Origin: a virus | Lineage: Duplodnaviria; Caudoviricetes | Length of the DNA: 41,840 bases | Virus record (IMG/VR): IMGVR_UViG_3300044820_000026 | Coordinates: 1-41,840 of that record | Direction: 5' to 3' (one strand) | In this document: positions 1 through 41,840 of the stretch, piece after piece | How positions within the stretch are numbered: position 1 is the stretch's first letter | Layout: every line of letters begins with the position of its first letter | Made by a program: the position numbers and the translations under genes | Notes under the pieces: model-generated | Seen by the model: only the letters and a program-made list of their open reading frames with translations | Databases searched by the model: none | Told to the model about the DNA's origin: nothing

Positions 1-254
1 CACTTTACGGATTGCTATTTTCACCAATCGCAATCCTCGGATAATATTTGGCTAGGTGCTAACACCGCTTACACTAGCATAAAAGGTGGTCTTAATACTG
101 GCGCGTATAAGAGAGGTGTGTATCAGCAGGGTACGCACCTAAAGCTAACGGGGCAGCAAATAGCGGTAAATAGCCAAGCCGGTTCGGCCTTATGGTCCGG
201 TGTAGAGCTAGGCGCGGCCTCATCGGGCAACCTTATATTTGGTAATTTGATCGG
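1..254. repeat. End overlap, copy 1 (equals 41587-41840); circular assembly junction
   Basis: 1-254 matches 41587-41840 except C127 vs A41713; falls in the middle of the tailspike ORF. Confidence 0.95.
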
Positions 255-603
255 CGCTTGGAGTGGGTACGGCACAGAGCTACAGAGCTACGGTGTAACC
301 ATAGACGCCGGTTCAGCCAATAATGCAGTGTACGGCAATGATTTACGCGGCAACGTTACGGGAGATATTCACGACCTCGCACTAGACGCCGCCTCGATGC
401 TTGGGCCAAACGTCGGACTAGCTACTACTCCCACTAAGTTTGGCCAGCCTTTACAGTTTACGGGAGCGGGAACATACCAAGCTAACGGAGCGGTAGCCAC
501 GGCCCTAACATCCCTAGGGCCAACGGGTTCGCGTACAACCGTGCAAAAGTGGATGACCGTATATGATGGTGCGGGAAATCCCTTCTATGTACCTTGCTTC
601 TAG
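1..603 (+). CDS. Tailspike, C-terminal part (continues the ORF starting at 40255 across the junction; about 644 aa total)
   Basis: Same frame as 40255; beta-helix-like Gly/Asn repeats; C-terminus WMTVYDGAGNPFYVPCF is typical of fibre ends. Confidence 0.85.
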   Translation, partial: HFTDCYFHQSQSSDNIWLGANTAYTSIKGGLNTGAYKRGVYQQGTHLKLTGQQIAVNSQAGSALWSGVELGAASSGNLIFGNLIGAWSGYGTELQSYGVTIDAGSANNAVYGNDLRGNVTGDIHDLALDAASMLGPNVGLATTPTKFGQPLQFTGAGTYQANGAVATALTSLGPTGSRTTVQKWMTVYDGAGNPFYVPCF

Positions 604-614
604 GAGAATTTACA

Positions 615-1172
615 ATGAACAGTAACTTACCCCTATCCTTAAAGATGCTCTACGTGTCGGAGGGGGACTACAGCAACGACGCGCACGACCCAGGCGGACC
701 TACGAATAAGGGAGTTATTCAATCGGAGTATAACGCTTATCGTAGGTCAATGAACCTCCCCATACAGAGTGTTAGGCTCATCCTAGATAGCGAAGTAGTC
801 GCCATCTACAAGGCGCAGTATTGGGATCGCGTTCAAGCTGATGCGCTTCCTAGCGGTATCGACTACATTGTGTTTGACGACGCCGTGAACTGCGGGCCTA
901 GGCAAGCGATTATCGCAATGCAGCGTACGCTTAATAGTCTACACAAGGCAGGCTTAGCTGTAGACGGCGTACTTGGGTTATTAACAATGGAGGCAGTACA
1001 TGAAGTAGACCCTACGGACTTTATCAAACAATACGTAGTACAGAGGATGGGGTTTTATAGACATATACCCGGCTGGCGGTGGTTTGCGTCAGGGTGGACC
1101 CATAGAATATATGGCCAGCGGGGCGACCCCGGTGTGTTAAAGAACGCGTTGTCCCTTGTAGCCAAGACTTAA
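615..1172 (+). CDS. Endolysin, glycoside hydrolase family 108 with peptidoglycan-binding domain
   Basis: EGDYSNDAHDPGGPTNKGV (EGGY-like), LAVDGVLG, FASGWTHR; AGGAG RBS favours ATG 615. Confidence 0.9.
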   Translation: MNSNLPLSLKMLYVSEGDYSNDAHDPGGPTNKGVIQSEYNAYRRSMNLPIQSVRLILDSEVVAIYKAQYWDRVQADALPSGIDYIVFDDAVNCGPRQAIIAMQRTLNSLHKAGLAVDGVLGLLTMEAVHEVDPTDFIKQYVVQRMGFYRHIPGWRWFASGWTHRIYGQRGDPGVLKNALSLVAKT

Positions 1173-1198
1173 ACTCTAACCCTAATATGAGGTGTTAA

Positions 1199-1438
1199 AT
1201 GGAGAAGTGGTTCGCTAGTCTAGCCGAGAGTTGGATATTCGCGCACACTAGCGATGTTGCAGCGTGGGCGGTAGACCGCTTACGCGAGCCTAGCACTTGG
1301 GCGTCTATCGCCGTATGGATTACGGCACAGGCCCATATCCTAGGTAACCCCGATGGTAAGAGCGCCTTCGTTAGCTTCGGCGTATCCTTCGCGGCGCTCC
1401 TAGGTGTAATCTTGAAAGAGAAGGGAGTAACAAAATGA
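1199..1438 (+). CDS. Putative holin
   Basis: 79 aa, two hydrophobic segments, RLREPSTW motif, basic C-terminus, follows endolysin. Confidence 0.65.
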   Translation: MEKWFASLAESWIFAHTSDVAAWAVDRLREPSTWASIAVWITAQAHILGNPDGKSAFVSFGVSFAALLGVILKEKGVTK

Positions 1439-1863
1439 GTTGGTTTTCGTTTAGCTCGATTAAGAACGCCGTCTATGTCGTAGAGACTGACGTGCTTCTT
1501 ACTATCGAGAAGATTAAGCAAGAGGCCATAGTAGCCGAGAGCGAGATTAGTGCGGCTCTGCGGTGGATCGCCTCTAACACTCCCGCTATCACTGCGGATA
1601 TTCAGCAGGTGTTAGGACTTGTACAGGTTGTAGGCATCGCTAACCCGCAGGTAGAGGCCGCAGTAGTTGCGGCTAATGCAGCAGTGGGCGCGCTTAACGT
1701 CTACGCGGCAGCTTACAATAAAGGAACAGGCACGGCGGCTTCGGTGATCGCCGGTTACTCGGCCTTTAAGCAGGCCCAGGCAGCGGCAGCTACGGCGACC
1801 TCCGTAGCGGTTTCTACGGGGCCTATCGCCGCCGAGGCCCCAATACCCAAGCCAACAGGCTAA
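1435..1863 (+). CDS. Ala-rich lysis-region protein of unknown function
   Basis: ATGA overlap with holin; 142 aa. Confidence 0.6.
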   Translation: MSWFSFSSIKNAVYVVETDVLLTIEKIKQEAIVAESEISAALRWIASNTPAITADIQQVLGLVQVVGIANPQVEAAVVAANAAVGALNVYAAAYNKGTGTAASVIAGYSAFKQAQAAAATATSVAVSTGPIAAEAPIPKPTG

Positions 1864-1887
1864 AGTGCACACCGCACCAAAGCACTT

Positions 1888-1921
1888 ATACCCGACCTCG
1901 TTGCGCGGGGCCGGGTATTTC
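1888..1921 (+). terminator. Possible intrinsic terminator
   Basis: ATACCCG...CGGGTAT stem followed by short T run. Confidence 0.4.
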
Positions 1922-1949
1922 TACGACCATCGAAGCGAGGCAGGCGGCC

Positions 1950-2177
1950 ATGACTGAGAATGTAACCCTACAAGACATCTATTATAAGCTAGGGCAGATG
2001 GAGGCCGCATTAACCGCGCATCTAAAGCAGGAAGACGAACAAACAAAGACTAACGCAGAACTGCACCATAAGATCGAAGTGCTACAGCTAAAAATGTCGT
2101 GGTTCGTAGGGGCTTCGGCAATGCTAGGTGCAGGAGTTACGCTCGTAATGCACAGGTTATTCGGCGGTATTCACTAA
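1950..2177 (+). CDS. Coiled-coil protein with C-terminal TM helix (lysis accessory, XhlA-like)
   Basis: GAGG RBS; heptad N-terminus; WFVGASAMLGAGVTLVM TM segment. Confidence 0.6.
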   Translation: MTENVTLQDIYYKLGQMEAALTAHLKQEDEQTKTNAELHHKIEVLQLKMSWFVGASAMLGAGVTLVMHRLFGGIH

Positions 2178-2179
2178 TG

Positions 2180-2205
2180 AAAATAGCCCCCTAGGGGGCT
2201 ATTTT
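2180..2205. terminator. Bidirectional terminator between convergent late and replication units
   Basis: Perfect 26-bp palindrome AAAATAGCCCCCTAGGGGGCTATTTT. Confidence 0.85.
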
Positions 2206-2226
2206 TATCCACGACTATAACCATGT

Positions 2227-2694
2227 TTATAATAACAATCCCTGTATATAAGCGATAGCACGGCTAAATAATGTGAGGTCATCCTCTAACAACCCTAGGC
2301 CACTATTACAGTTATGGCAGAGTATACCTCTTACACGGCCTGTATTGTGGCAATGGTCAACTACGGGCGACCGTGCCTTGTTCCCTATAACGAACTCCCT
2401 TCTGCATATAAGGCACTTATTCTCCTGCTTAATCATCATAGTGTTATAATCGTCTAGACCTATGCCGTAACTACGACGTAAGAAGTACTCCCTACGCTTT
2501 TCAGGGTTTTGCTTTTGCCAAGCAATTTTCGAAGCCCTATACCTTTCGGGGTTTTGCTTTTGCCAAGCCCTAGTCACAGCCGCACGTTTTGAGGCTCTAT
2601 TCTTCCTAATATTGGCCGTTATCGCTGCATCCTCTAAGGGATCAAAGGGCCACTGTATTCCGTCTAACTCAAACATCGCTATGCAATACTCCAT
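2227..2694 (-). CDS. Endonuclease VII-family HNH endonuclease
   Basis: CLICRR..VVDHCHNTGRVRGILCHNCNSGLG; AWQKQNPE repeated with 45-bp period. Confidence 0.9.
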   Translation of the reverse strand: MEYCIAMFELDGIQWPFDPLEDAAITANIRKNRASKRAAVTRAWQKQNPERYRASKIAWQKQNPEKRREYFLRRSYGIGLDDYNTMMIKQENKCLICRREFVIGNKARSPVVDHCHNTGRVRGILCHNCNSGLGLLEDDLTLFSRAIAYIQGLLL

Positions 2695-4093
2695 GTTTCC
2701 TAGAGTACCCCATCAACGCCATAGCGGCGTTTTCTTTTTTCTGTAGCGCCTTGACCATTTCCTTATCCATAGCGCTAGAGACTAGATCAATAACTTCGAT
2801 GGGTATCTTGCGCCCCATCTTCTCAGGCCTAGCCTCGCACTCGGATCGAGTGATAAGACTATAGTTATTCTCGTAGAATATAATCGTATCGCAGGGCATT
2901 TCGTCGGTGCCGGGGAGGGTATGCCCCATCTTAGCGACCTCGATTTGAGCGATAAGAACCTTACAATTAGGATCAGTATTAAATAGACGTTTCTGCGCCT
3001 CTACAGCTTCCCCGCGCATACCGCCCTTTATAGTGGCCGGATTAAACTCGGCTAGGGTATCCTCTAGCCAGTCATAGCTTTGCTGGAACTTGTAGAAGAC
3101 TATTACCTTGTTCTCGACCTCCTCTTTAATGATGTTATAGACCTCCTTCAGCCTAGGGTTAAAGTGAGGTTCTACTATAACGGTTTCCATACCTGTCTCG
3201 CTAGTCGCGAAGCCGCTAGAAATCTGCTGCAAACGGAGATACTTCGTTAGAGCTATGGCGGCTGTAATATCCCCGCTATCCATAGCAATAAGGAAATCCT
3301 TTTCCATTTGCTTGTACGCCTTAGTTTGATTAGGCGTCATTCCTACATGGCGGATAGGGGCGTAAATCTTAGGCTCAAACTCCGCTAGGTATTTATCGCC
3401 TGCGATAAAGCAATGCGGGGCCATTGTATCGCGTAGGTAAGCGGTGTTTTGTTCGCCCACTACTTGCTTACCCATGTATCCACCTAGGACACAGAAAGTA
3501 TTACGGAAGCCGTAGAAGCCCATGGCCGTGGCGTCTATGACCTTGAGTTGCGCCCATAGCTCATGATTGCCGTTGCTCGTGGGCTTTCCCGCCAATACTC
3601 TCTTATAGGCAAATGACCTCGCGAGCTTCAGAGCGGCCTTCGTGCGTTGTGCACCGTGGTTTTTTATCTCGGTGGATTGATCGAAAGCGATCATTGCGCG
3701 CCTAGGGTCAAACAAATTAAAATAGCCGTAGTCCACCGCAGCAGCTAGGCTATCGTAATTTATAATAAGGATAAGCGCCGTTCCTTCCTTGCGCCTAAAG
3801 CAATCAGGAACTTGCTTACGCTTAGAAGCCTCGTAGACGTAGCTGAACGCGGGAACATTCCACTCATCGCAAATAGCGTCCTGCCAAGCGTACTTAAGCG
3901 AGTTAGGGCATACTACGATTAGAGTATCAGCTAAGCCCTGACGCCTCAGCAGTTCGAAGTCGGCCAGCACTGTTCCAGTCTTACCCATACGTTGACGCAT
4001 GAAGTACGCGAAACCAGACCGACCGGCCCCGGCCTCTAGCGCCGCTAGCTGTACAGCCCTAGGCTGTTTTTCAAAGGGCCAAATACTAGTCAT
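2669..4093 (-). CDS. SNF2-like (SF2) helicase with degenerate motifs
   Basis: RMGKT, LIVVCPNS, IINYDS, FDQSTEIKN, LRLQQISSGF, IIFYENNYS. Confidence 0.85.
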   Translation of the reverse strand: MTSIWPFEKQPRAVQLAALEAGAGRSGFAYFMRQRMGKTGTVLADFELLRRQGLADTLIVVCPNSLKYAWQDAICDEWNVPAFSYVYEASKRKQVPDCFRRKEGTALILIINYDSLAAAVDYGYFNLFDPRRAMIAFDQSTEIKNHGAQRTKAALKLARSFAYKRVLAGKPTSNGNHELWAQLKVIDATAMGFYGFRNTFCVLGGYMGKQVVGEQNTAYLRDTMAPHCFIAGDKYLAEFEPKIYAPIRHVGMTPNQTKAYKQMEKDFLIAMDSGDITAAIALTKYLRLQQISSGFATSETGMETVIVEPHFNPRLKEVYNIIKEEVENKVIVFYKFQQSYDWLEDTLAEFNPATIKGGMRGEAVEAQKRLFNTDPNCKVLIAQIEVAKMGHTLPGTDEMPCDTIIFYENNYSLITRSECEARPEKMGRKIPIEVIDLVSSAMDKEMVKALQKKENAAMALMGYSRKHGVLHSDV

Positions 4094-4247
4094 GAACCAC
4101 CGCCTTCAGCATCAGCTTAGCCCGTAAGCAAGAGGCGTACATTTCCTGAAAGATTTCATCCACCTCGACGTTTATAATCTCGGTAGACACGATCTTTTCT
4201 AAGTCCTTCTCGATACGGGAAAGCAATACAAATAATAACTCGCTCAT
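4086..4247 (-). CDS. Small hypothetical protein (53 aa, not in ORF track)
   Basis: MSELLFVLLSRIEKDL...VVHD*; fills the gap and overlaps the helicase start. Confidence 0.55.
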   Translation of the reverse strand: MSELLFVLLSRIEKDLEKIVSTEIINVEVDEIFQEMYASCLRAKLMLKAVVHD

Positions 4248-4251
4248 AGCC

Positions 4252-4464
4252 CTAACGTCCTCTGTTGAAGGTTATGCCCATATACTTGAATTGCGTGTAG
4301 ACAGTTCGCGGCTCAAGTTTAAGGGGAAGTTGGTCCTCACGGTTCATTACCATTACAGGGCTTTCCATCACTATACACTCCCATAGATTGTCGAACTCCC
4401 GCGCTGCTAGGGTGATCTTAACGCTATCGTCGTTTAAGATTATCTCCTTGCTCTTTAGGCGCAT
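4252..4464 (-). CDS. Hypothetical protein
   Basis: Operon position; likely start MRLKSK. Confidence 0.5.
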   Translation of the reverse strand: MRLKSKEIILNDDSVKITLAAREFDNLWECIVMESPVMVMNREDQLPLKLEPRTVYTQFKYMGITFNRGR

Positions 4465-4495
4465 AACGAAGTCCCCAATGATGGATAGGATAGAC

Positions 4496-4720
4496 CTATT
4501 CGAAATCTTTCCAGTCATAGCTTAATGTGTACTCCTGATTGTCGTAGTTGTAATGCAGTGTAGCAGTGTCGCCCTCGCAGTGTAGGGCAGGTTCGAGAAG
4601 GTCTATTGCCTTCTCGTACTCGTCAACGCCTAGGGCGTCCCAACCGTGACGGTTAATTATGTCTACGGAAGCTTGACCTGATATGCGGCGGCTTACGTAC
4701 GCCGGTAGTGATACCGCCAT
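4496..4720 (-). CDS. Hypothetical protein
   Basis: GGAG RBS; operon position. Confidence 0.55.
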   Translation of the reverse strand: MAVSLPAYVSRRISGQASVDIINRHGWDALGVDEYEKAIDLLEPALHCEGDTATLHYNYDNQEYTLSYDWKDFE

Positions 4721-5094
4721 AACAACTCCATGTTGAATACACCGTTAGAGTATGGTACAAATACAGTCTCGTTAGGGGTAACGTATTCATCATCCTTAGT
4801 AGTTATGTATAGTCGTAACTCCCCTAGCCATATCGCACCCGTTAAGCATATGCTCCCGTATTCTCGCATAAACTTCTTTTGTAGCATTTCCAGCTTAGGC
4901 TTGAAGGGAAGGTGAGAGCATCGCCTGCCATGATACTTTACTTCGGCCAATACTAACGGAAAGTCCCTAGGCTTTATTATTAGATCAGCTATACCCTTCT
5001 TAAACGCGCCGTTAGTCTTCTCCGCATTACCGCCCTGCCCTTTAATGCTAGTGATAATCTTATCCTGTAATCCTCCGCGTCCTATCTCTTTCAT
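4693..5094 (-). CDS. VRR-NUC / PD-(D/E)XK nuclease (Holliday junction resolvase-like)
   Basis: KGIADLII...LAEVK; lies between PolA and helicase. Confidence 0.7.
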   Translation of the reverse strand: MKEIGRGGLQDKIITSIKGQGGNAEKTNGAFKKGIADLIIKPRDFPLVLAEVKYHGRRCSHLPFKPKLEMLQKKFMREYGSICLTGAIWLGELRLYITTKDDEYVTPNETVFVPYSNGVFNMELLWRYHYRRT

Positions 5095-5300
5095 CGAGGT
5101 TGTCCTAAGTAGACGTACTTAGCCGTAAGACCTTCAGCCATTTGCTCTACGCCCTTATGTTTAACCATAATAGTAACATGCACCTTCTCAGGGTTAGGCG
5201 CGCTTACCCATTCAGCAACGTGTTGCTGTATAAGGCGTACAATGTCCTCGTACGTAAGTGTAATATCTATTTTCCTACCAGTACCTCTAGGTTTCTCCAT
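5091..5300 (-). CDS. Hypothetical protein
   Basis: Likely start MEKPRG; ATGA overlap with next gene. Confidence 0.5.
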   Translation of the reverse strand: MEKPRGTGRKIDITLTYEDIVRLIQQHVAEWVSAPNPEKVHVTIMVKHKGVEQMAEGLTAKYVYLGQPR

Positions 5301-5533
5301 TCGGTATCGTCGGGCATACGACCGCGTACTACGATTAGGCCGCTTTCGTGCCAGTTGCATATCTCTATGTATATCTCTTGATATTGCACTGGTTCGGGGC
5401 CGCTACGCGGGGAGGGCAACCTAGGGAGGTATATGAAGCGCTTAATCCTACGCTTCGCTATCTCGTGTTTATTGTTCTTCCACAGTGCTTTAAGATACAT
5501 AACCTTAAGTTCGTCGCTAAGTTCATTTCCCAT
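5267..5533 (-). CDS. Hypothetical protein
   Basis: Overlaps the end of PolA. Confidence 0.45.
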   Translation of the reverse strand: MGNELSDELKVMYLKALWKNNKHEIAKRRIKRFIYLPRLPSPRSGPEPVQYQEIYIEICNWHESGLIVVRGRMPDDTEWRNLEVLVGK

Positions 5534-7337
5534 AGGTGGCCTCTGCCCAATCCTTGCCCATCTTTAAGTCAGCTACGAAAGGTACGGTTAGACTAAATGG
5601 AGGGCCGTTAACATCCTCCATTATGCGCTTACACTCCGAGATAGCGGCTACGCCTTCAGGCGTATCCTCGACCTCGAATACAATGCTATCGTGGATATTC
5701 AATAGCATATGTAGGTCTACTGGCGAGCTTCTAACGTACTCGCCTATCTCACACATTTTGAACTTAAGAATATCCGCAGAGCCTCCCTGAATGATAGCAT
5801 TAGGGGCTTTGTACGCCCCGCGCGTATCGGGGAAGCGCCTACGCCTGCCTAGGATAGTACGTACGTAGCCCCTATCCTCTGCTACGGCTATAGCACGCTT
5901 ACGCCAAGAGCTAACGGAGGGGAATAGCTTGTACCATCCAAACCATAGCCTTTGGGCTTCTTCTTCCGATATGCCTAGGGCGCGGGCCAGCTTGGATTGC
6001 CCCATCAGATAAAGGATAGCAAGATTAAGAACTTTAGCATGGTCACGATCAACCCCAAGCATAGCACTAACAATACTGTGCATATCAATAAATGGGCTAG
6101 CTCGATAACCGTCCACCAAACGCGCTTCATTAGAGTAGTGAGCATAGAGCCTCGGTTCGCACTGAGAGTAATCCATTTCCGCTAGCAGGTAGCCAGGACG
6201 CGCTACAAACATAGAGCGGAATAACCGGCCTATTTCTTTGTTGCGCTTAGGCACCTGCTGCATATTGGGGTTATTAGAGCTAAGCCGTCCGGTAACCGTA
6301 CCAAAATCGTCGGTCTTAACTTGGTTGAATGAAGTGTGCACCGCAGCAGTTCCGTCCCCCGGCTTAAATACGTGGTGCTGCACGAAGGGCTTAAGGAACG
6401 TATTTAAGAACGTTTCATGGTTCTTAATGCTAATAAGCTTCTGCCCTAGCTCCGTAGTTTCGAGGTAGCTGGACGTAAAGCTGGGGTTACCCTTATCCGT
6501 AAGTGGCCAGTCCTCTATGTCATACATCTTAAAGTATGATGCCATATCGCGGCTACTACGGGTATTAAGTTCAAAGTCACATAGTAGCTTATCCATACGC
6601 TGATGTACGATATAGCTAGTAACATGCTCTAAAATCTCCTTCACCCTAGGACGGTCTACGGATATACCCCTAACCTCCATATCCACGAGTACGCGGGTTA
6701 GACGGTTTTCTAGGGCGTAGACTATACCTAGGCTTTGCTCGTCCACGCGCTTAAGCTGTTCTATGTGTAGCTCGTAGGTTGATTTAGTATCGCCTGCGGC
6801 GTACTCGGCTACCATAGGATCGTTGCCGGGCATTTCGTGGTAATGCCCCATCGCTTTCCTATCCGGCTTACAGCCACGCATTAGCGATATGTAATTGTAT
6901 AGCTCCTGTTCGATCTTAGGTGTAACGCCGTAACTCTTGGCGAGCGCCCCTAGGGAAAACCTAGAAGTGTGCTCGTCAATAAGCGCCTGCGTCACCATAG
7001 TGCACACCAGATTTAGCGGACGTAAATCCACACCATGATTAAGACTAAACAGCACGTCAAACTTGAGATTATGACCAATAACTGTCCCAATAGCTCCCCC
7101 CAATGTACGCGATAGCGCTTGTTCAAAATCGGTAGCGTTGCATATATTACCGCCGCCAGTATGACGAACAGGAACATAAAAAGATGCGCTCCCGTTACTA
7201 ACACTATAGCCGATGACGCTATTTCGCTTCCAGTCAAGTCCTGTAGTTTCGACATCATATGCAAAGAGCTTAGCATCGCGTACTATCCTTAGAAATGCTT
7301 CGGGGTTAGGTTCGTATAATGGTATAGCCTTAAGCAT
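5523..7337 (-). CDS. Family A DNA polymerase with 3'-5' exonuclease domain
   Basis: ExoI YDVETTG, GHNLKFD, TGRLSSNNPNMQQVP, motif A DYSQCEPR, motif B KVLNLAILY, motif C NIHDSIV. Confidence 0.95.
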   Translation of the reverse strand: MLKAIPLYEPNPEAFLRIVRDAKLFAYDVETTGLDWKRNSVIGYSVSNGSASFYVPVRHTGGGNICNATDFEQALSRTLGGAIGTVIGHNLKFDVLFSLNHGVDLRPLNLVCTMVTQALIDEHTSRFSLGALAKSYGVTPKIEQELYNYISLMRGCKPDRKAMGHYHEMPGNDPMVAEYAAGDTKSTYELHIEQLKRVDEQSLGIVYALENRLTRVLVDMEVRGISVDRPRVKEILEHVTSYIVHQRMDKLLCDFELNTRSSRDMASYFKMYDIEDWPLTDKGNPSFTSSYLETTELGQKLISIKNHETFLNTFLKPFVQHHVFKPGDGTAAVHTSFNQVKTDDFGTVTGRLSSNNPNMQQVPKRNKEIGRLFRSMFVARPGYLLAEMDYSQCEPRLYAHYSNEARLVDGYRASPFIDMHSIVSAMLGVDRDHAKVLNLAILYLMGQSKLARALGISEEEAQRLWFGWYKLFPSVSSWRKRAIAVAEDRGYVRTILGRRRRFPDTRGAYKAPNAIIQGGSADILKFKMCEIGEYVRSSPVDLHMLLNIHDSIVFEVEDTPEGVAAISECKRIMEDVNGPPFSLTVPFVADLKMGKDWAEATYGK

Positions 7338-7522
7338 TATGCGCGCCTCGATACGTGGCGCTTATTGCGGGCCTCGGTTTCCTCCTTAGCCCAATCAGGC
7401 CTAGCCGCGCCGGTAGAGGGGTTAAGCCCGCACTTGATACCTAGGCGCTGCATGTGGTCAAGCTTAGACTTGATGTACTTAGCGTCACTAACGCAGTGGG
7501 GCTTACGAATATGCTTAGCCAT
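7337..7522 (-). CDS. Small basic hypothetical protein
   Basis: AAGGA RBS; TAATG coupling to PolA. Confidence 0.55.
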   Translation of the reverse strand: MAKHIRKPHCVSDAKYIKSKLDHMQRLGIKCGLNPSTGAARPDWAKEETEARNKRHVSRRA

Positions 7523-7545
7523 CTATGTGTTTTCCTTCTAGATAT

Positions 7546-7578
7546 AAAAATGCCCTAGGCCGCATTACCTAGGGCATT
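7546..7578 (-). terminator. Intrinsic terminator downstream of SSB-like gene
   Basis: 11-bp stem AATGCCCTAGG/CCTAGGGCATT plus T run on minus strand. Confidence 0.75.
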
Positions 7579-7588
7579 ACGGTTAGAG

Positions 7589-8984: not shown

Positions 8985-8987
8985 AAC

Positions 8988-12581: not shown

Positions 12582-12787
12582 TACTTGCCTAGGAAACTTT
12601 GGGGATTAGGGAAGCTTAGTGGTAGAACGCAGCGTGACCCATCCGCCACTAAGCTAGGGTTAGAGTGTATCGCAGAACGCCGCAGGACACAAGCGACCAT
12701 TTGCCGCACGCTCTGGTTGTGTTGCAGCGTTAACACAAGCGAACGAAAAATTAAGGAAATCGACTACGTAAGTACATCCCGTATCTG

Positions 12788-29310: not shown

Positions 29311-29322
29311 GGAGCGTATTAG

Positions 29323-29706: not shown

Positions 29707-29707
29707 T

Positions 29708-30310: not shown

Positions 30311-30311
30311 A

Positions 30312-33009: not shown

Positions 33010-33515
33010 TGGCATTTTTACCCGTAATAGGGGCTATGGGGAGCCTAGGTAGTATCTCCACTGTGGCCACTATAGGTGCGTCCATGCTAGGAGCGGTAGG
33101 CAGTATAGCTCAAGGTCAGGCTTCCCAACAGGCTCAACAGTATAACGCTAAGGTAGCACAGATACAGGCTACTACAGCGGAAAACCAAGCGGCCTCACAG
33201 TCCGCCAATATAGTTGACGCCACTAGGCGCAAGGTAGGTACGGCTATCGCCGCAGGCGGTGAAAGCGGTATAGATACCTCAGAGGGCAGCTTTCGCGACC
33301 TGTTAGCGAATACGTCCGCGTTCGGCCACTTAGACGCGCTTACGGCCCTTTATAAAGGTAACGTTCTCGCTACAGGATACCGTAACCAAGCTGCGGCGGA
33401 CATCTACGCAGGCGATCAGGCCGCTCTTGGTGGATGGATGGGCGCAGGCACTAGCCTTATGCGTGGCGTAGCTACAGCTTATAAACCCGGTGGCTCAGCA
33501 AGCTTGGACATATAA
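33009..33515 (+). CDS. Internal virion / ejection protein (gp14-like)
   Basis: Gly/Ala hydrophobic N-terminus; Gln/Ala helix; ESGID. Confidence 0.75.
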   Translation: MAFLPVIGAMGSLGSISTVATIGASMLGAVGSIAQGQASQQAQQYNAKVAQIQATTAENQAASQSANIVDATRRKVGTAIAAGGESGIDTSEGSFRDLLANTSAFGHLDALTALYKGNVLATGYRNQAAADIYAGDQAALGGWMGAGTSLMRGVATAYKPGGSASLDI

Positions 33516-36134
33516 ATGCCCCTAGCACCTTTTGACCAAAAAGTAGACGTATCCGCACAGCAGGGTATGCCTCAGTCTCAAATGACTGGCGAGTACACGC
33601 GCCAGCCGGGGCTAGCACTTGAGAATATGTCTATCCAAGCGCAGAAGGTTGTACGCGCTTACGATCAAGAGCAAGAGAAGCTTGCTACGTATAAGGGTAT
33701 GCAGGTAGAGCAGCAGTTTCAAACGCAGCAAACGTTAGCGCTAGATCAGGCTAAGCGTAGCTCTACAGATGGAGCGCCTAACTTAGCTAAAGACTACATG
33801 AATGACTATCAGACCGCAGAGGATCAAGCCTTAAAGAATATTGATCCTACGGTAGCGGCTAAGTTCGCGCCAAGGTTCGATCTACTAAAGCAGCACTTTA
33901 CGGTACAGGCCTATTCGGCAGAACAGGGCGCTAGAGACAACTTCTACGCCAATAGCTTGAATAAGAACATAGATGACGCGGCTAAAAAGATACGCGATGA
34001 TCCGTCGTCGTATCCGTACGTCATTAGTCAAACCCTTGATAACATCAACGCGACTACTCTGCCCGAAGACCTAAAGCAGAAGTTCCGAGATAATATTACT
34101 AATTCGACCGGGCCGACTGCACTATTTAATGCAGATAATGAGGCAAACCCGCGTAAGGTTGCTACGGATATTGGATTAGCTGTACCTCCCGGTGATGGAT
34201 TGCCAGGGGGGCAAAGCAGTATTCGAAGCCTAGGGTTGTCGCCTAACGGGCCTATGGCCACTATTACGACTAACAGCGGCGCTAAGCTTACTGTAGCGGC
34301 TCCCGGTGCACACCAATTTGCCAATTTCATACAGGCTTTGGAAGCGCAGGGCTACAATATTGACCCTAGCGACGTTTCCAGCTTTAGACCTGGCTCTAGG
34401 GTCGCGGGTACGGGCGGCTTATCCTTCCATTCGGTAGGGGCGGCGATTGATCTTAACGCTAGCGAAAATAGGCCCAATACTGGCAGTAAGACGGATATGC
34501 CTGCTAACGTAGACCAGTTAGCGAAAGAGAACGGGCTAATATGGGGTGGCCATTTTGGCCCAGGTGCAAGCTATAAAGATAGTATGCACTTCAAGCTTGA
34601 TAAGTATATTAAGCCTGAAGACCTGCCTAAGTACGGCGGTACACCGCCCTACGTTCAAGGCGCTACTCCCTTACAAATCAATGGAAGGGCTATTGATCCT
34701 AGCGCTGTTACACGCCTAGGGATAACTAATCCTAGGCAGGTTTCAATACTAAACGACGTTAGGGGTAAAGCGCAGGAAATCGGGTTTAGTCCTGATGTAG
34801 CGGCAGCTACGCTGTACCTCGAAAATCATACTATGGACCCCGGCGACGTAAGCGCTACTGGTATGCGGGGCCTCTACCAGCTTGATAGCGATCACAGCAC
34901 CAAGTACGGCGAGACAAGTACGATAGCGGGCCAGATAAACGCAGGCGTTCGTAGCGTTCAAGAGCGGGAGGCTTCGGCTAGGGCGTTCCTAGGCCGTGAG
35001 CCTCAGCCGTGGGAAACATACTTATTCCACTATCAAGGCGAGGGCGGTGCAGCGGCTCTACTAAAGGCGGACCCTGCCGAGAGCGTATTTAGTGCACTAT
35101 CCAGTAAGCTAGGTGCGAACTACGCAGCTAAGGTTATAGCGGGTAACCCCGATACGGCAGGTAAATCCGTAGGTGCGTTCTTAGATGGTATTAAGCAGCG
35201 TATGAACAACGCGCTAGCTGTTACAGGCGGCGCGTATGATCCTTCTATGCCTACTACATCCCCGGCCTATGCAGGCGTATCCTACGATACTATGCAGAAG
35301 TTCCGGCAGACTAACGCAGCTACTATACAGGCCCAGGATAACGCAGACTTTAAGGCCCAAACGGATTACCTAAAGATACAGCAAGACGGCACACAGAAAG
35401 ACTTAACCGATCTATTGCAGGCTAATAAGCTTACGCCTGAAGCCGTGGCTACGTATAGAGACGTGCTTACCGCTCCCGAATATCAAAAGTGGATGAAGAC
35501 GGCTACAGATAGCCAAAGCGAAGACCCTGTAAAGGTATCGAACTTTCCAGTCTATAAGCAAATTCGGGATTGGGCGGCGGACCCCGATCAGGCCTATAGG
35601 GTTAAAGAGCAGGCTACGCAGGCCGTGCTTAACGGTTTTCTTAGCCGAGCAGATTACGACAAGCTTAACACTGCGGCAGATAAGACTATAGCCGATAATC
35701 AGCCGGGGCTATCCGGCACGGCTAGGAACCAGGCACGCGGCGACGCCATTAAAGAGCTATACGACTACGTGAATAATCCTATGTTTAAGACACAGCAGGG
35801 TTTGCTTACGGCGGATGGCAAGCGTAGGGAGTTTGACGCGTGGTACGCAGACCATCCCCAGGCTACTTATGCGGACATAGACGATAAGCTTACACAAATG
35901 AAACAGTCTATTGATACGGATCGTGTAGCTCAGGGATATTTTAATGACGGACTTAAGAAGTTATCCGTTAAGAGGATAGAGGACGTTACGCCTGAGATTA
36001 TGGCTAAGAAAAGCGCGGCGCTTGTAGCTTCCGTAGGGAAAGCCGGTATAAACCAACGGGATATTATAGAAACCCAAAAGGCTTTAATGGAAGTTCAGCG
36101 GCGTATTGATAACGCTAAGAAGGTCACAAAATAA
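33516..36134 (+). CDS. Ejection protein with M15 peptidase and lysozyme-like domains
   Basis: SFHSVGAAIDLN..WGGHF..DSMHF; LYLEN..GLYQL..YLFHYQGEGGA. Confidence 0.8.
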   Translation: MPLAPFDQKVDVSAQQGMPQSQMTGEYTRQPGLALENMSIQAQKVVRAYDQEQEKLATYKGMQVEQQFQTQQTLALDQAKRSSTDGAPNLAKDYMNDYQTAEDQALKNIDPTVAAKFAPRFDLLKQHFTVQAYSAEQGARDNFYANSLNKNIDDAAKKIRDDPSSYPYVISQTLDNINATTLPEDLKQKFRDNITNSTGPTALFNADNEANPRKVATDIGLAVPPGDGLPGGQSSIRSLGLSPNGPMATITTNSGAKLTVAAPGAHQFANFIQALEAQGYNIDPSDVSSFRPGSRVAGTGGLSFHSVGAAIDLNASENRPNTGSKTDMPANVDQLAKENGLIWGGHFGPGASYKDSMHFKLDKYIKPEDLPKYGGTPPYVQGATPLQINGRAIDPSAVTRLGITNPRQVSILNDVRGKAQEIGFSPDVAAATLYLENHTMDPGDVSATGMRGLYQLDSDHSTKYGETSTIAGQINAGVRSVQEREASARAFLGREPQPWETYLFHYQGEGGAAALLKADPAESVFSALSSKLGANYAAKVIAGNPDTAGKSVGAFLDGIKQRMNNALAVTGGAYDPSMPTTSPAYAGVSYDTMQKFRQTNAATIQAQDNADFKAQTDYLKIQQDGTQKDLTDLLQANKLTPEAVATYRDVLTAPEYQKWMKTATDSQSEDPVKVSNFPVYKQIRDWAADPDQAYRVKEQATQAVLNGFLSRADYDKLNTAADKTIADNQPGLSGTARNQARGDAIKELYDYVNNPMFKTQQGLLTADGKRREFDAWYADHPQATYADIDDKLTQMKQSIDTDRVAQGYFNDGLKKLSVKRIEDVTPEIMAKKSAALVASVGKAGINQRDIIETQKALMEVQRRIDNAKKVTK

Positions 36135-39100
36135 TGGGCAACATAGATAGTTTATACGAGGAACGCCAAACCGCTTCGGAGCTTCAAAGCAGTTTAGAGT
36201 GGTTACAGCAACAGGCCTCTATACTTCCGCAAGACGCTAAGGTTAAGCCCGACGCTTCCGCCGATATAGCGCCCCCTACACCTAATGTCGCGGCTAAATC
36301 CGATACGGAAACGCATACGGCTACGTCTTACCCTAGCGGTATTGCCCCTCAGCCATCGGCCCTAGGGAAAGCGGATGCCAGCGACCCTGAATTAGAGGCT
36401 ATGCTTAGAGGCGAGAAGCCTGAAGATGCTACCCGTACTTGGGTAGGTGCAGCGGGCGAGGTATTAGCCGCTCCTATACGTGGCGGCGTTAAGGCCGTAA
36501 ATGAGCTAGGCGGATCACTTATACGTACGTTCGTATTCGATCCTAAAGACTTCGCTGCGGGCGTAGATAAGTACCAAGACGTATTCGGCCCTATTAAGGA
36601 TGCAGAGGGCAATCCTGTACCTAGGGAACACGTTAACGATGTGCTATCGGGCATACAAGAAGGGTTCGACTACGGGCGTACGCTCCCTGAAATGCCGGAA
36701 GCTAAGAGCGTAGGCGGCAATATCGCGGCAGGCATAGCGCAGTTCATCGTAGGTATGAAGGGCATAGACAAGGCGTGGCGTGCGGCTAACGTAAGCTTAG
36801 ATGCTATGTCTACACTCACGCAGACCACGAGGGCGGCTAGGCAGTCCGAAGCTATGTTTACCCCTTTCCTAGTCAAAGGGGCGATGACTGACGCAACAGC
36901 CTTCGACGGTCATACGGATAACCTAGCTAACTTAGTACAGTCCTTTCCGGCGCTGCAAAACCCCGTAACCGAATATCTTGCTAGCGATCCTAACGACAGC
37001 CAAACACTAGGTAGGCTTAAAAACGCGATAGCTAACCAAATCGGTGTAGCTGCGGCAGAGCCGGTGCTTTCCGCTATTAGGTATAGCGCTACGTGGCTAC
37101 GTGAGTACCGTAAGGAACAGGCCGCAGTTAACGCTACTCAAACGCAAGCGCAAACTGACGTGGCTAAGCTCGCACAGCTTTCAGCGCAGGAGAAGCAATT
37201 CGCTATCCTAGGTGATGCCACTAAGGATGGTTGGACATTTTACGATAGGGACGCGGTTAAAGCTGCGGAAGAAGCTAAGAACCTTAAGTCTAACCAAATC
37301 CAGCCCGCGCCGGGAACTGCGCCATTAGACAATGGAAATCCGCTTAACTCTAAATTCTCGCAGGACCATGCAGGGGAGGGGACTACTACCCCGCAGCTAA
37401 CTACACCTGTAGAAATGGACCCCGAGATAGGCCGCGCTCGACCCAACTTTTTAGCTAATGGTAAGCGCTACGGTATCCAGTTCGATACGCCAGAGGACAA
37501 ATTAGCTTGGCTGGCCGAGACTGGCCACAAGCTAGGCGATAAAGCGCAAGAGCAGCTTAAGGCCGCAGGATGGACGCCGGAACAGGTAACGCGTATTGGC
37601 GATGCCATTTCGGCGCAGCTTAGCGATGCGGCGGGCGCTGCGGCCCCAGGAGATAAGACACTTAAGGTAGGGCCGACCGCTAGAGGAATATACGCCGACG
37701 ATATTCAGGCCAACTTAGGCGGGCCTCCGCTAGACATTTCTGCGAAGGCTATGCAGAAAGTTCAGTACGGCGAGGGCGATAGTGGATATGGTGTAATTAA
37801 CTTCGCAGCGCTTAAGGATCAACAGGGCATCCTTAGCGCTATCCGCCAAATGCAGGATACTTTCGATAAGCGCCCCGAAACTCGTACTTGGGCAGAAGTA
37901 ACTAACAAGGCCGAAGGCGTAGACGCTTTTGATGAAATCCTAAATGCGCCTAGGGACAGGCCCCCAGGCGATACGGAAATGATAGCCGCTAAACAGCTAT
38001 TAGCCGCATCGTACGCTAAGGTCTATAAGCTATCGGATATGGTGCTCACGGCCTCGTCCCAGGGTACGCTAGATAATACTATGCGCTTTGCATTTGCTCA
38101 AATGCTAGAGACGCATAGGCTTATATCTAATTACTGGAATTGGTCAGGTACGGAGGCGGCGCGGTCGCTGGCCATACGCAGGTCTAATATTGCCCTTGAT
38201 ACGGGGCAAACCATTAACCCTAGGCTTAAGGATATAGATAGAGCGTTAGGCACGATTGACGGGGTTAATAACCTTGAGTTTATCGCCGGGGCCGTTAAGT
38301 CCGCTATAGATAACGGCGGGGAAGCGGGTAAGCTAGCGCTTAATAAGGTACTTAATACGCAGGGCTATCTTGCCACGACTAACCGGATACTGCGCGAGAT
38401 TTGGATAAATGGCATACTTTCAAGCACCAAGTCTCTTGTAGTTAACGTCCTTAACCCCGCCGTGCTAGCGGTAAATCAAGCCGTAGAGCGCGGTATGATG
38501 GAAAGCATAGCAAGAGTAACGGGCGATGATACAGGCGTAGTATCTGGGCAAACCGGACAATGGCTATATGGAATGGGTCAAGCTGTTCCCGATGCGCTTC
38601 GCAATGCTAGGCAGGCCTTCACCTTTGGGGGCAGAGGCCGTGCATGGGGAGATATGTACGCACGTACCTCTACAGATCAAGCGGCCCTCCCTAGTCGCCC
38701 TAATGCCCTATCTGCGGCATACCTAGGAATAAAGGATAGTACGCCCTTCACTACGTCGATGGCGCGCGCTGTGGATATGCTAGGCGCTGTAGTCAACGCC
38801 CCCGTAAGAGCTAACTTAGCAGGAGACGAGTTTTGGTCTACGCTGTTTTACCGTGGCGAGTTACGCGCCCAAGCGTTTAGACAGGCCACGAACGAGGTAT
38901 CTTCGGGTAAAGTTAGGCCGGAAGATTTATCCTCTAGGATGCAGACCCTTATAGATACCTATAACGGTACGCAAGAGGCTCCCCTAGGGAAGCTCGCAAC
39001 AGAAGATGCACACTACAACACACTAACGAAGGGCCCCGGCGGCATAGGCAAAGTATTAGAAGGCATATCTAACCTAGGGACTAAGACCACCGGGCCGTTA

Positions 39101-40258
39101 GGCTGGCTATTTGTGCCGTTCCATACCATACCTGCTAATGTGTTAGACTATTCAATGTCTCGTACTCCGCTTAACCTGCTAACACAAAGGTCGCGCAGTG
39201 CCATTATGGCGGGAGGCGTAGAGGGCCAAAAGGAACTCGCTAAGACAATGGCGGGTAGCATGGTCATAGGCCTTGGTATTGATATGTACCAGCGCGGCGT
39301 TCTTACAGGTAGAGGCTCCGTCGATCCTAACGAGGCGCGGGCGCTTTCTAGGGAAGGCATTAAGCCCTACTCTGTTCGCCTAGGCGATACATGGTATAAC
39401 ATTAACCGACTAGATAACTTCGGCTACATGCTAGGCATGATCGGAGATATTGGAGACTACTACAGCTTTCTACACGATCAAGACGAGGATGTATATAAGG
39501 GCCTAACTATGGCCGTGTATCAAATGGGCCTCGCTATGACGAACTCCGTCATGAGTAAGTCATATTTTCAGGGTGTTATGAACTTGGATAGAGCGCAGCA
39601 GGACCCAAAGACTTGGGCTAAGTCCTACGTCTATAGTATGCTTAGCAGCTTCGTACCATACTCAGGTGCAGCAAACACGGTTAGTATGCTTAACGATGAT
39701 CTTATGCGCGAGGCCGGTAGTAGCTTGGAAGCGTGGGGTAGTAAGATACCGGGGCTTAACCCCACTGCGCCTAGGATAGATATGTTCGGTAGGGAAATGA
39801 CGGTTAGTCGTGGCACGTCGCAGACGTGGAACGCGCTTATGCCCTTAGAAATGTCCGCACATAATCCAGAGCCTATAGACGCTGAGCTTGTTAGGAATAA
39901 AATGTATTTCAAAATGCCTAGCAAGAAATTCGCAGTTGGGCCTGATGAAGTCGATATGTCTATGCGCCCCGACGTATACGCTAGATTTAACCAGCTAGCC
40001 GGGAATGAGATACAAGACCCTTATATGCGTATGGGATGCAAAGACCTACTTAATTCTATCGTAGAAGGAAGCTCTCCGTTATCGGCCTCCTATAATATGG
40101 CCAGTAGTGAAGGGGGTAACGATAGCGAGAAAGCCACAATGCTTAAGAACCTAATTGGGGGATACCGTAAACTAGCACAGCAGCAGATTATACAGGAATA
40201 CCCCGAGCTAGTACATCAAACACCGAAGGCTAAGATTTACGGAGTACCAGTGCAATGA
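36134..40258 (+). CDS. Large internal virion / ejection protein
   Basis: 1374 aa, helical; FVPFHTIPAN, KPYSVRLGDTWY, RIDMFGR; synteny. Confidence 0.8.
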   Translation: MGNIDSLYEERQTASELQSSLEWLQQQASILPQDAKVKPDASADIAPPTPNVAAKSDTETHTATSYPSGIAPQPSALGKADASDPELEAMLRGEKPEDATRTWVGAAGEVLAAPIRGGVKAVNELGGSLIRTFVFDPKDFAAGVDKYQDVFGPIKDAEGNPVPREHVNDVLSGIQEGFDYGRTLPEMPEAKSVGGNIAAGIAQFIVGMKGIDKAWRAANVSLDAMSTLTQTTRAARQSEAMFTPFLVKGAMTDATAFDGHTDNLANLVQSFPALQNPVTEYLASDPNDSQTLGRLKNAIANQIGVAAAEPVLSAIRYSATWLREYRKEQAAVNATQTQAQTDVAKLAQLSAQEKQFAILGDATKDGWTFYDRDAVKAAEEAKNLKSNQIQPAPGTAPLDNGNPLNSKFSQDHAGEGTTTPQLTTPVEMDPEIGRARPNFLANGKRYGIQFDTPEDKLAWLAETGHKLGDKAQEQLKAAGWTPEQVTRIGDAISAQLSDAAGAAAPGDKTLKVGPTARGIYADDIQANLGGPPLDISAKAMQKVQYGEGDSGYGVINFAALKDQQGILSAIRQMQDTFDKRPETRTWAEVTNKAEGVDAFDEILNAPRDRPPGDTEMIAAKQLLAASYAKVYKLSDMVLTASSQGTLDNTMRFAFAQMLETHRLISNYWNWSGTEAARSLAIRRSNIALDTGQTINPRLKDIDRALGTIDGVNNLEFIAGAVKSAIDNGGEAGKLALNKVLNTQGYLATTNRILREIWINGILSSTKSLVVNVLNPAVLAVNQAVERGMMESIARVTGDDTGVVSGQTGQWLYGMGQAVPDALRNARQAFTFGGRGRAWGDMYARTSTDQAALPSRPNALSAAYLGIKDSTPFTTSMARAVDMLGAVVNAPVRANLAGDEFWSTLFYRGELRAQAFRQATNEVSSGKVRPEDLSSRMQTLIDTYNGTQEAPLGKLATEDAHYNTLTKGPGGIGKVLEGISNLGTKTTGPLGWLFVPFHTIPANVLDYSMSRTPLNLLTQRSRSAIMAGGVEGQKELAKTMAGSMVIGLGIDMYQRGVLTGRGSVDPNEARALSREGIKPYSVRLGDTWYNINRLDNFGYMLGMIGDIGDYYSFLHDQDEDVYKGLTMAVYQMGLAMTNSVMSKSYFQGVMNLDRAQQDPKTWAKSYVYSMLSSFVPYSGAANTVSMLNDDLMREAGSSLEAWGSKIPGLNPTAPRIDMFGREMTVSRGTSQTWNALMPLEMSAHNPEPIDAELVRNKMYFKMPSKKFAVGPDEVDMSMRPDVYARFNQLAGNEIQDPYMRMGCKDLLNSIVEGSSPLSASYNMASSEGGNDSEKATMLKNLIGGYRKLAQQQIIQEYPELVHQTPKAKIYGVPVQ

Positions 40259-41840
40259 CCGTAGCTACCTCTACGAATGTCAATTCCTATAGTGGGGACG
40301 GCTCAACTACGGCGTTCCCTATTACGTATATGTTTCAGCAGAACGCCGACGTTCAAGTATCCGTTGAAGGTAGTATACTTGTCCTAGGGGCGGATTACAA
40401 CTTAACCGGGGCAGGCGTACCGTCCGGTGGTACGTGTACGTTTACTGTAGCCCCCGCAGCGGGTAAGAAGGTGGTGCTATTTAATAACCCCGCTTTAACC
40501 CAAACCGCTAACTTGGTGGACTACCAAACTCTGTTAGAGGCTACAGTAGGGAACTCGTTGGATAAGCTAACGATCCTTATGCAAGCATTAAACTCTAAGC
40601 TTAATTCAGTCATGACGTATAATAGCCTCGTGACTACGCCCACGTTTCAGGGTCAGGGCTATGAGATACAGAACATAGCTAAAGGCACCTTATCCACTAG
40701 CGCGGCTAGGGTAGACCAAATCCAAGCTATCGCAGCGGGAGCGGGCAACGTGCCAGGGCCTCTTGCAGCGGATAGTGGTAAGTCTCTACTAGCTACGGGG
40801 CTAAATGCCTTTCAATGGGGATGGGATACCGCTAAGGGCGTTCCCCTACAAATCTTTAATCCCGATCTAACCGGCGCTACTCCCTCTGATACGGCAGTGG
40901 CCGCAGCTATTGCTAAATGCGTGTCGATGGGGGATAAGCTTCTATTGGTCCCCGCAGGTACGGTTACACTGACTGGACCCGCAGTGTGCGGGGCTAACGC
41001 TATTCGGTTCGAAGGCCACGGCCCCAACACCAGTATTATACAAGCTACGGCGGGGACATTTGACTTGCTCACTTGGGAGGGCAGCGCACTAGACGGCGGC
41101 GTGCGGGGCATTAAGTTCCTTGCAACGGGCATGTCAGGCGGCAATATGCTAAGCGTAAAGCAACAGAAACGCTTTGTTATATCTGACTGCGTATTCGGTA
41201 ACGGATACAATGGCGTCTATATTGAAGATCAGAACGGCGTCTCTATGGAGCGGCTTACCTTTCAGAACCAAACCGGAGCGTATTCTATACGAAACCTAGG
41301 CACAGGCATAGGCAATGCTAACGTACTGGATATGCAGAACATAACTATAGGGTTCTCTACTAACACAGCGGGTTCGCCTAAAGGCATTGTGCTAGACGGC
41401 GCTGTGGCCACTATCGGAATTAGGCACTGCGCAGTAACTAAGGGCTATCGTGGGCTATCCGTAGAGAATACCCCTCTTTTAACAGGCGCGCTAACGTCAT
41501 TCATTACAGCCTATGACTTCGAAAGTGACTTCCCCTACGATAGTGCTCTATACATAGATCAGGGCGCAGGCGTATCTAGGACTAACCACTTTACGGATTG
41601 CTATTTTCACCAATCGCAATCCTCGGATAATATTTGGCTAGGTGCTAACACCGCTTACACTAGCATAAAAGGTGGTCTTAATACTGGCGCGTATAAGAGA
41701 GGTGTGTATCAGAAGGGTACGCACCTAAAGCTAACGGGGCAGCAAATAGCGGTAAATAGCCAAGCCGGTTCGGCCTTATGGTCCGGTGTAGAGCTAGGCG
41801 CGGCCTCATCGGGCAACCTTATATTTGGTAATTTGATCGG
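40255..41840 (+). CDS. Tailspike: T7 gp17-like anchor plus pectate-lyase-like beta-helix (missed by ORF track; open at window end)
   Basis: MTVATSTNVNSYSGDGSTTAFPITYMF.., LDKLTILMQ, DTAVAAAIA..LLVPAG, RFEGHG; ATGA overlap with previous gene. Confidence 0.85.
   Translation, partial: MTVATSTNVNSYSGDGSTTAFPITYMFQQNADVQVSVEGSILVLGADYNLTGAGVPSGGTCTFTVAPAAGKKVVLFNNPALTQTANLVDYQTLLEATVGNSLDKLTILMQALNSKLNSVMTYNSLVTTPTFQGQGYEIQNIAKGTLSTSAARVDQIQAIAAGAGNVPGPLAADSGKSLLATGLNAFQWGWDTAKGVPLQIFNPDLTGATPSDTAVAAAIAKCVSMGDKLLLVPAGTVTLTGPAVCGANAIRFEGHGPNTSIIQATAGTFDLLTWEGSALDGGVRGIKFLATGMSGGNMLSVKQQKRFVISDCVFGNGYNGVYIEDQNGVSMERLTFQNQTGAYSIRNLGTGIGNANVLDMQNITIGFSTNTAGSPKGIVLDGAVATIGIRHCAVTKGYRGLSVENTPLLTGALTSFITAYDFESDFPYDSALYIDQGAGVSRTNHFTDCYFHQSQSSDNIWLGANTAYTSIKGGLNTGAYKRGVYQKGTHLKLTGQQIAVNSQAGSALWSGVELGAASSGNLIFGNLI
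41587..41840. repeat. End overlap, copy 2
   Basis: Matches 1-254 with one mismatch. Confidence 0.95.

Follow-up and report, generated by a model that had tools for sequence, protein, structure and literature searches.

CCTAGG, a palindrome repeated throughout one phage genome and rare in its likely host, as a possible selected DNA tag

The 41,840-base IMG/VR virus record IMGVR_UViG_3300044820_000026 (Duplodnaviria; Caudoviricetes), an apparently complete podovirus genome that we refer to in its full length as the window, contains 99 copies of the palindrome CCTAGG, which is thereby its commonest hexamer, at 2.4 per kilobase (kb) and with copies in each 2-kb bin. This genome-wide signal is real, strong and unexplained, and codon or TA bias alone is excluded as its full cause. 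As a tentative explanation, which we hold to be somewhat short of probable, we propose that CCTAGG is a selected DNA tag, the binding site of a predicted and probably phage-made reader protein that would recognize phage DNA and almost no host DNA. A preliminary description of this DNA had counted at least 27 CCTAGG between positions 1 and 10,000 and had stated that the word stays dense elsewhere and in genes on both strands; there are exactly 27, all nine positions that it gave for individual sites are right, and the full set of 99 agrees with its wider statement.

Base frequencies predict 10.2 copies of CCTAGG and an order-2 Markov model 26, a 3.8-fold excess over the latter, and the maximal-order Markov expectation, which is inflated by the motif itself, is 70 (z 9.3). 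For the coding regions we used 56 open reading frames (ORFs) picked by hand, a few of which, short or overlapping, are possibly false. Shuffling synonymous codons in these genes gave 13.1±3.3 copies compared with 78 observed, a 6-fold excess, and the top value among 300 shuffles was 23. A stricter shuffle that preserves codons and codon-junction dinucleotides, and that like our dipeptide and word-bias analyses omits the ORF at 118–603 (leaving 55 genes and 77 coding CCTAGG instead of 78), gave 29.2±3.7 with a top value of 40 in 300, a 2.6-fold excess (z 12.9), so that the enrichment survives both the Markov and the codon-shuffle controls that the preliminary description had called for. Other palindromes never rose above z 3.7 under this strictest null, with GTGCAC (15 vs 6.4) and TGGCCA (15 vs 6.6) mildly raised at that value. 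Because two half-sites combined predict 29 coding CCTAGG where 77 are seen, the excess belongs to the complete palindrome.

The word is written largely through synonymous choices. Within genes, 22 sites read as CCT AGG (Pro-Arg) and 56 as nnC CTA GGn (x-Leu-Gly), and another 21 lie outside genes or across gene ends. The 78 genic sites fill 78 of 120 synonymous opportunities; counted by dipeptide over the 55 genes, 22 of 38 Pro-Arg and 55 of 81 x-Leu-Gly positions able to spell CCTAGG do so. The free base ahead of CTA GG is C in 55 of 57 cases, compared with 35 of 148 ahead of CTA followed by a non-G codon, and the word relies on codons that are rare in host loci, where CTA makes up 4% of Leu codons and AGG 6% of Arg codons. 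On coding strands CCTAG is found 125 times and CTAGG 122 times, so that the half-words are equally represented on coding and template strands, a balance more in keeping with double-stranded DNA than with RNA. In the flanks of the sites C/G is mildly preferred at the first position, and nothing is seen further out. Dipeptide conservation did not differ between filled and unfilled sites (0.21 vs 0.30, P=0.17).

The sites are also evenly spaced. When filled and unfilled opportunities were permuted, the coefficient of variation (CV) of the gaps was 0.93 compared with 0.745 observed (P=0.0026), and the longest gap was 2,118 compared with 1,373 base pairs (bp; P=0.012). Unfilled opportunities tend to lie closer to existing CCTAGG (148 vs 222 bp, P=0.052), and among 71 frequent hexamers CCTAGG is the only one with a spacing P<0.01. 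We found no helical phasing of the sites or of TA steps, and periodicity analysis of the 41.6-kb genome gave no single outstanding period and a lowered low-frequency power (0.60).

The palindrome is scarce in the bacteria that the phage likely infects, which we place among Rhodomicrobium-type bacteria by means of a putative attP core upstream of the integrase gene that matches the 3′ half of a tRNA-Lys gene. The exact 42-base match occurs at 28 of 44 genome loci, all 44 of them in alphaproteobacterial, Pseudomonadota or unclassified records, and 22 of the 23 genomes with an exact match belong to the family of Rhodomicrobium sp. Az07; identity stops at 42 bases, which is why an exact 44-base att pattern had no matches. 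Together, the integrase and the tRNA-matching core make it likely that the phage is temperate, and the survival of a GANTC within the core fits a working attP. Several host loci carry a second partial tRNA-Lys copy beside a distantly related integrase (26–30%), indicating that other elements use the site, and one Rhodomicrobium genome with the att match (L264, G044:C602) has a lysozyme gene whose product shares 42% identity with the phage endolysin. The 23 exact-att genomes (1.9–7.4 Mb) hold 19–460 CCTAGG with a median of 110, a density 38- to 390-fold below that of the phage. In host loci the word is the second rarest among 492 four-GC hexamers, it has the top phage-to-host ratio (95-fold) of all 2,080 hexamers, and crudely called host ORFs fill 16 of 2,813 opportunities. 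This scarcity may be explained by Vsr, which drives CTAGG to CCAGG (PMC2715241) and was found in 42 of 75 host-family genomes. A paired-site scan of 401 host-order genomes led to 30 fetched loci that are hairpins or operators, none of them related to this phage. Also in the host order, several genomes have a conserved inverted repeat bounded by CCTAGG that directly precedes a MarR-like gene and efflux operon (L417:1501–1529, L419:820–848, L420:1501–1529) and is probably an ordinary operator.

A general TA bias runs through the genome alongside the palindrome. TpA steps are in excess across codon positions 2-3 and 3-1, with a rho of 1.41 compared with a median rho of 0.60 in 96 related loci, 0.60 in host loci and 1.23 in L139, the closest DNA fragment (see below), and four-fold sites lying between C and A carry T in 63% of cases. 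This bias accounts for CTAG, CTTAAG and the majority of GCTAGG, and it supplies about 29 of the 77 CCTAGG in coding regions. It is weakest in genes with high-expression codon use, and the capsid and scaffold genes and those at 28588–29019 and 14828–15496 avoid CTA and ATA. The preliminary description had judged both TA steps and CTTAAG to be frequent: the former is borne out, and the latter dissolves as a separate signal once TA bias is modelled (29 vs 28.1). Phages normally shed palindromes and thereby escape restriction. This one has reduced 28 of 64 palindromic hexamers to 0–1 copies, yet has retained CCTAGG and filled itself with it. GANTC, the CcrM site of alphaproteobacteria, is present in 2 copies (20360 and 21300) compared with about 85 expected in genes. 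A different word, TTAGAG/CTCTAA, has 57 copies, with ACTCTAA at 19 vs 4.5 on coding strands; CTCTAA often sits at gene junctions on the coding strand (e.g. 7583, 14649, 15521, 16149, 17620, 18017, 26219, 27553 and 28566).

Along the genome, CCTAGG is densest in the non-coding junction, at 5.0 per kb; the early and replication genes have 2.9 per kb and the head and tail-tube genes 1.4. No longer palindrome surrounds 74 of the 99 sites, and five sit in palindromes of 20–26 bp, namely four early-region repeats and one convergent terminator. We could thus confirm that CCTAGG centres early repeats and terminators, as had been noted: it lies at the middle of four perfect 20–22-bp palindromes (16129, 16347, 17600 and 17997), of the 26-bp palindrome around site 2190 and of the hairpin around site 16054. 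The stem-loops of the repeats fold with z scores of −2.7 to −4.0. One of the four 50-bp repeat copies has a promoter-like match, promoter matches were fewer than in shuffles, and no consistent sigma-70 promoter was found across the four. The early palindrome had no match in IMG/VR or cultured phages.

Among relatives, the trait is specific to this lineage, as 96 related loci totalling 1.12 Mb, with proteins mostly 24–53% identical, contain 34 CCTAGG. Searching IMG/VR with the capsid, polymerase, helicase and tail tube B, and with a capsid alignment, yielded relatives of 24–53% identity or none; a JGI scan gave the 1,848-bp L139 (73%) as the sole close DNA fragment, and the closest capsids (P0002–P0008, 62–78% identical) are known as proteins alone, those at 69–78% being encoded on contigs of 39–44 kb. 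Most third positions differ between L139 and the window, yet a CCT AGG site in the tail tube A gene is retained, and two further opportunities common to both are empty in both. Conservation of sites in relatives, which the preliminary description had put forward as a check, could be assessed at this one orthologous site, and the distant relatives are without a motif excess. A scan for triple CCTAGG clusters covered 12 of the 64 parts of IMG/VR, and CCTAGG was counted over the full length of 38 out of 40 selected records; none of the 38 was a near-complete viral record above about 0.45 CCTAGG per kb. Two fragments reach 2.4–2.5 per kb, one of them mostly through a single cluster. The 4,778-bp L084, a fragment of a T7-like phage with an integrase and an RNA polymerase, has 12 CCTAGG (2.5 per kb) and is a possible second CCTAGG-rich case.

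In the mechanism that we propose, one phage-made protein would occupy the roughly 99 CCTAGG sites, those of the early-gene palindromes and terminators included, and once bound would keep the genome silent or organized in the lysogen and in early infection, in the manner of stoperators, with a separate and weaker genome-wide TA bias contributing about 29 of the 77 coding copies. Here we infer the host, the action of selection, a two-fold symmetric reader on double-stranded DNA, and its encoding by the phage. The reader is most simply phage-made because the host barely carries CCTAGG, and a six-base site would be specific enough since the median host chromosome has 110 copies, about the same number as the 42-kb phage. 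Three observations make us favor a stoperator-like role over a nuclease shield or an aid to packaging or replication: the phage has the look of a temperate one, family scans of its proteins recognized no CI-type repressor, and the word centres early palindromes and terminators. Shielding and packaging are close alternatives. An unlikely but more far-reaching version would make this a methylation-free self/non-self system in the primary sequence, in which one phage protein coats, shields or licenses phage DNA and leaves host DNA bare. The whole genome would then have been rewritten with a hexamer that, among the GC-rich ones, is close to the rarest in the host, as the inverse of restriction-modification, and unrelated phages would use words of their own. 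If a phage protein does read CCTAGG, it would represent a new form of viral self-DNA recognition without chemical marks.

Three proteins are candidates for the reader: the tandem helix-turn-helix (HTH) protein at 12123–12581, the early protein at 14828–15496 and the divergently transcribed protein at 12874–13344. Structure models of two candidates are of low confidence (pLDDT 44 and 48), and a fold search with a modelled candidate returned nothing at E<=0.001, with weak HTH rows only.

Several observations weigh against the proposed tag. The earlier suggestion of a self-mark for a phage protein is supported by the 95-fold phage-over-host ratio, the full palindrome, the strand symmetry and the even spacing, but we identified no reader protein for CCTAGG, and for the tandem-HTH protein no homologue was found through which it could be linked to the motif in other phages. 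Conservation amounts to a single orthologous site that lies within a 16-bp identical block, so that protein or other constraint may account for its retention. The protein sequence is hardly altered (Leu-Gly 97 vs 82, Pro-Arg 38 vs 32), the capsid and a neighboring gene fill just 1 of 5 opportunities, one of 165 pentamers with 80–120 copies is equally evenly spaced (CV 0.74), and the general TA bias resembles a weak force acting site by site. The 75 host-family genomes yielded neither a prophage relative nor a convincing spacer-like match, so that host and lysogeny are deduced from the att match. Stoperators, as described in PMC6550527, are 13 bp and asymmetric, and CCTAGG is 6 bp and symmetric. 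Finally, saturation and even spacing are likewise predicted by a repair ratchet (PMC4390886).

Such a ratchet, which we consider rather unlikely here, would consist of a nicking or mismatch-repair activity on phage DNA that fixes CCTAGG-creating mutations up to the point where a site is close by in most of the genome, the word being a strand signal or a by-product as in Elhai's proposal for cyanobacterial highly iterated palindromes (HIPs). Like the selected tag, it would fit both the need for the whole palindrome and the even spacing. Both of its predictions, as given in PMC4390886, are seen here, highly expressed genes withstand the bias, one-off words with an A or T as outer base fall under expectation (ACTAGG 0.62, TCTAGG 0.81), and the phage encodes a polymerase, an endonuclease VII-fold nuclease, a second putative nuclease and a GHKL ATPase. 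However, the ratchet requires a methyltransferase, and none was found among the phage ORFs scanned against PHROGs (55), Pfam (39), NCBIfam (27) and PADLOC (22); one supplied by the host should make the host word-rich, whereas it is depleted. Neither a MutS-like gene nor MutH was seen in the phage, and its density of 1 site per 420 bp exceeds the 1 per 1,000 of the model (PMC4390886). If the ratchet were nevertheless true, the phage would allow that model to be tested directly, through a phage enzyme not known so far. The HIP1-like origin through methylation or deamination bias that had been raised earlier is weakened by the same missing methyltransferase and by CCCAGG, which is undepleted at 19 vs 19.6. 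In its specific form, which we regard as highly improbable, Dcm-type methylation of CCWGG without Vsr repair would turn CCCAGG into CCTAGG. CCWGG is indeed depleted (35 vs 81.5), and Vsr makes the reverse change, CTAGG to CCAGG (PMC2715241), but every NCTAGG should then rise, and ACTAGG and TCTAGG do not; CCCAGG is the one CCAGG context that is not depleted, the remaining contexts standing at 16 vs 60; and Vsr in 42 of 75 host-family genomes suits host scarcity, not phage excess. Dcm-type deamination is thus largely refuted by the neighbor pattern.

The reader might instead belong to the host, with TA-rich, CCTAGG-studded DNA recruiting a nucleoid or silencing protein for prophage silencing, or titrating a defence sensor. 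This we find quite improbable. The lack of a recognized CI-type repressor speaks for it, as do the MucR/Ros silencers of alphaproteobacteria, which bind AT-rich, bendable DNA and in connection with which TpA steps are discussed (PMC9410896). Yet MucR favors AT-rich tracts, whereas CCTAGG is 67% GC and the exact palindrome alone is enriched; neither the sites nor the TA steps are helically phased; the 96 related loci show no excess; and in viral contigs triple clusters of CCTAGG are no commoner than those of GCTAGC (~690 vs ~1,600 stretches), a control that is confounded by tandem repeats. Slightly less probable again is a safe-harbour sink, in which the purging of restriction sites and a TA mutational bias together fill the words left uncut, CCTAGG being the fullest. 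In its favor, 44 hexamers are purged to 0–1 copies, words with TA making up too small a share of these (11% vs 29%), and the preference for T at four-fold C_A sites goes with a bias that explains CTAG, CTTAAG and most GCTAGG. Once this bias is modelled, however, CCTAGG keeps its 2.6-fold excess while other tolerated palindromes stay near expectation, and even spacing is not predicted by a sink.

The ends of the record overlap by 254 bp (1–254 vs 41587–41840) with 1 mismatch and are bridged by a contig in the metagenome run, which indicates a circularly permuted, apparently complete genome of 41,586 bp. A search of sequencing runs found one DNA run with the window sequence, a peat metagenome that is possibly its source, and no RNA run among the matches listed. 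Divergent contigs in this run were short and were left out of the conservation comparison. In that run contig depth is 19.5 over 17993–20300 compared with 12.3, with steps of 15.6 and 13.8 to the left, and this raised depth at the early/late junction is a possible terminal repeat, genome end or packaging start. Recognizable genes include a podovirus-type head and tail module, DNA polymerase A, a helicase, a primase and an endolysin, in addition to the endonuclease VII-fold protein and the tyrosine integrase, and no tRNA or Rfam family was found in the window. Matches to cultured phages are distant (capsid 48% to Ralstonia DU_RP_II, polymerase 36% to Ochrobactrum OH, terminase 52–57%), and a megablast of 20 kb against cultured phages gave no match. 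The N-terminal part of the endonuclease VII-fold gene contains a 45-bp tandem duplication (2490–2579, 78% identical), and the GHKL-ATPase-like protein belongs to a large unnamed phage family and has an EEYMH motif at its C terminus. Coordinates of the sites, repeats and genes are collected in Table 1.

Table 1. Positions of CCTAGG-bearing elements, candidate readers and other features in the window
Feature	Position	Strand	Remarks
Dispersed CCTAGG palindromes (99)	513..41300	.	Outermost sites at 513 and 41295; gaps average 416 bp and reach 1,373 bp
Perfect 26-bp palindrome centred on CCTAGG (2190)	2180..2205	.	Terminator-like hairpin, convergent genes on either side
Terminator-like hairpin, CCTAGG (16054) central	16047..16066	-	
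Early-region 50-bp repeat, copy 1	16105..16154	.	22-bp CCTAGG-centred palindrome
Early-region 50-bp repeat, copy 2	16323..16372	.	20-bp palindrome
Early-region 50-bp repeat, copy 3	17576..17625	.	
Early-region 50-bp repeat, copy 4	17973..18022	.	
Non-coding stretch between divergent early and late arms	18621..19818	.	6 CCTAGG, densest (5.0 per kb); within raised-depth zone
CCTAGG in tail tube A gene	29819..29824	+	Orthologous Pro-Arg CCT AGG kept in L139:1761
Orphan protein with two HTH domains and Cys clusters	12123..12581	-	First candidate reader
Early protein of unknown fold	14828..15496	-	Second candidate reader; high-expression codon use, no CCTAGG, one homologue (56%)
Divergently transcribed Cys-containing protein	12874..13344	+	Candidate reader; lysogeny-switch position; small unnamed family
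Likely attP core	21290..21331	-	42 bp identical to 3′ half of tRNA-Lys(UUU) in Rhodomicrobium-family genomes; holds one of the two GANTC sites
Tyrosine integrase	21387..22250	+	Contains 5 CCTAGG
Endonuclease VII-fold nuclease	2227..2694	-	Weak match to type II restriction enzyme model
GHKL-type ATPase-like protein	16367..17581	-	Bracketed by two CCTAGG-centred palindromic repeats

Full-text literature searches, with subscription journals and supplements outside their scope, gave no report of CCTAGG over-representation or of an iterated palindrome private to a phage. The closest parallel is cyanobacterial HIP1, GCGATCGC, with its alternate highly iterated palindromes (PMC4390886; PMC5861425). 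Like HIP1, CCTAGG is a short perfect palindrome that occurs within and between genes, arises from synonymous choices and is non-randomly spaced, and its density lies at the top of the 0.2–2.73 per kb described for HIP1 (PMC5861425). The phage word is a hexamer and not a chromosomal octamer, however, and its enrichment is 2.6- to 6-fold by codon-aware nulls compared with 16- to 317-fold for HIP1 (PMC5861425). Of the properties used to define HIPs, CCTAGG has a genome-wide density of at least 0.2 per kb and occurrence within and between ORFs, and its 3.8-fold excess over the order-2 model falls below the 16-fold enrichment over a second-order model that was set for octamers (PMC5861425), so that it behaves like a highly iterated palindrome without being a member as defined. 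It also differs in that no cognate methyltransferase was found and that the word is depleted in the likely host, which makes it a mark of phage against host. The phage would be a much smaller test system than cyanobacterial HIP1: it has 99 sites, the reader would be sought among about 56 genes, and Rhodomicrobium species that likely serve as hosts are in culture.

In Proteobacteria, GATC serves with Dam as a strand signal and Vsr drives the depletion of CTAG. As with GATC/Dam and MutH (PMC4390886) and with Vsr (PMC2715241), the abundance of a short palindrome might be set by DNA repair, but here the phage gains the word that the host loses, and neither a methyltransferase nor MutH was found in the phage. 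The four 50-bp repeats recall the PeSL cassettes of T4-type phages, described as a strong sigma-70 promoter joined to a stem-loop (PMC2839356), in being repeated stem-loop cassettes between small early genes, but no consistent sigma-70 promoter was found in them, and they cover 4 of the 99 CCTAGG. Cluster A mycobacteriophages carry stoperators, 20–30 repressor sites distributed genome-wide that are 13 bp long, asymmetric, oriented with transcription and bound by a proven repressor (PMC6550527). They share with CCTAGG a temperate phage, which ours likely is, and a single site repeated many times both inside genes and between them, at times in early control elements, and they differ from its 99 palindromic copies of 6 bp, whose reader is putative.

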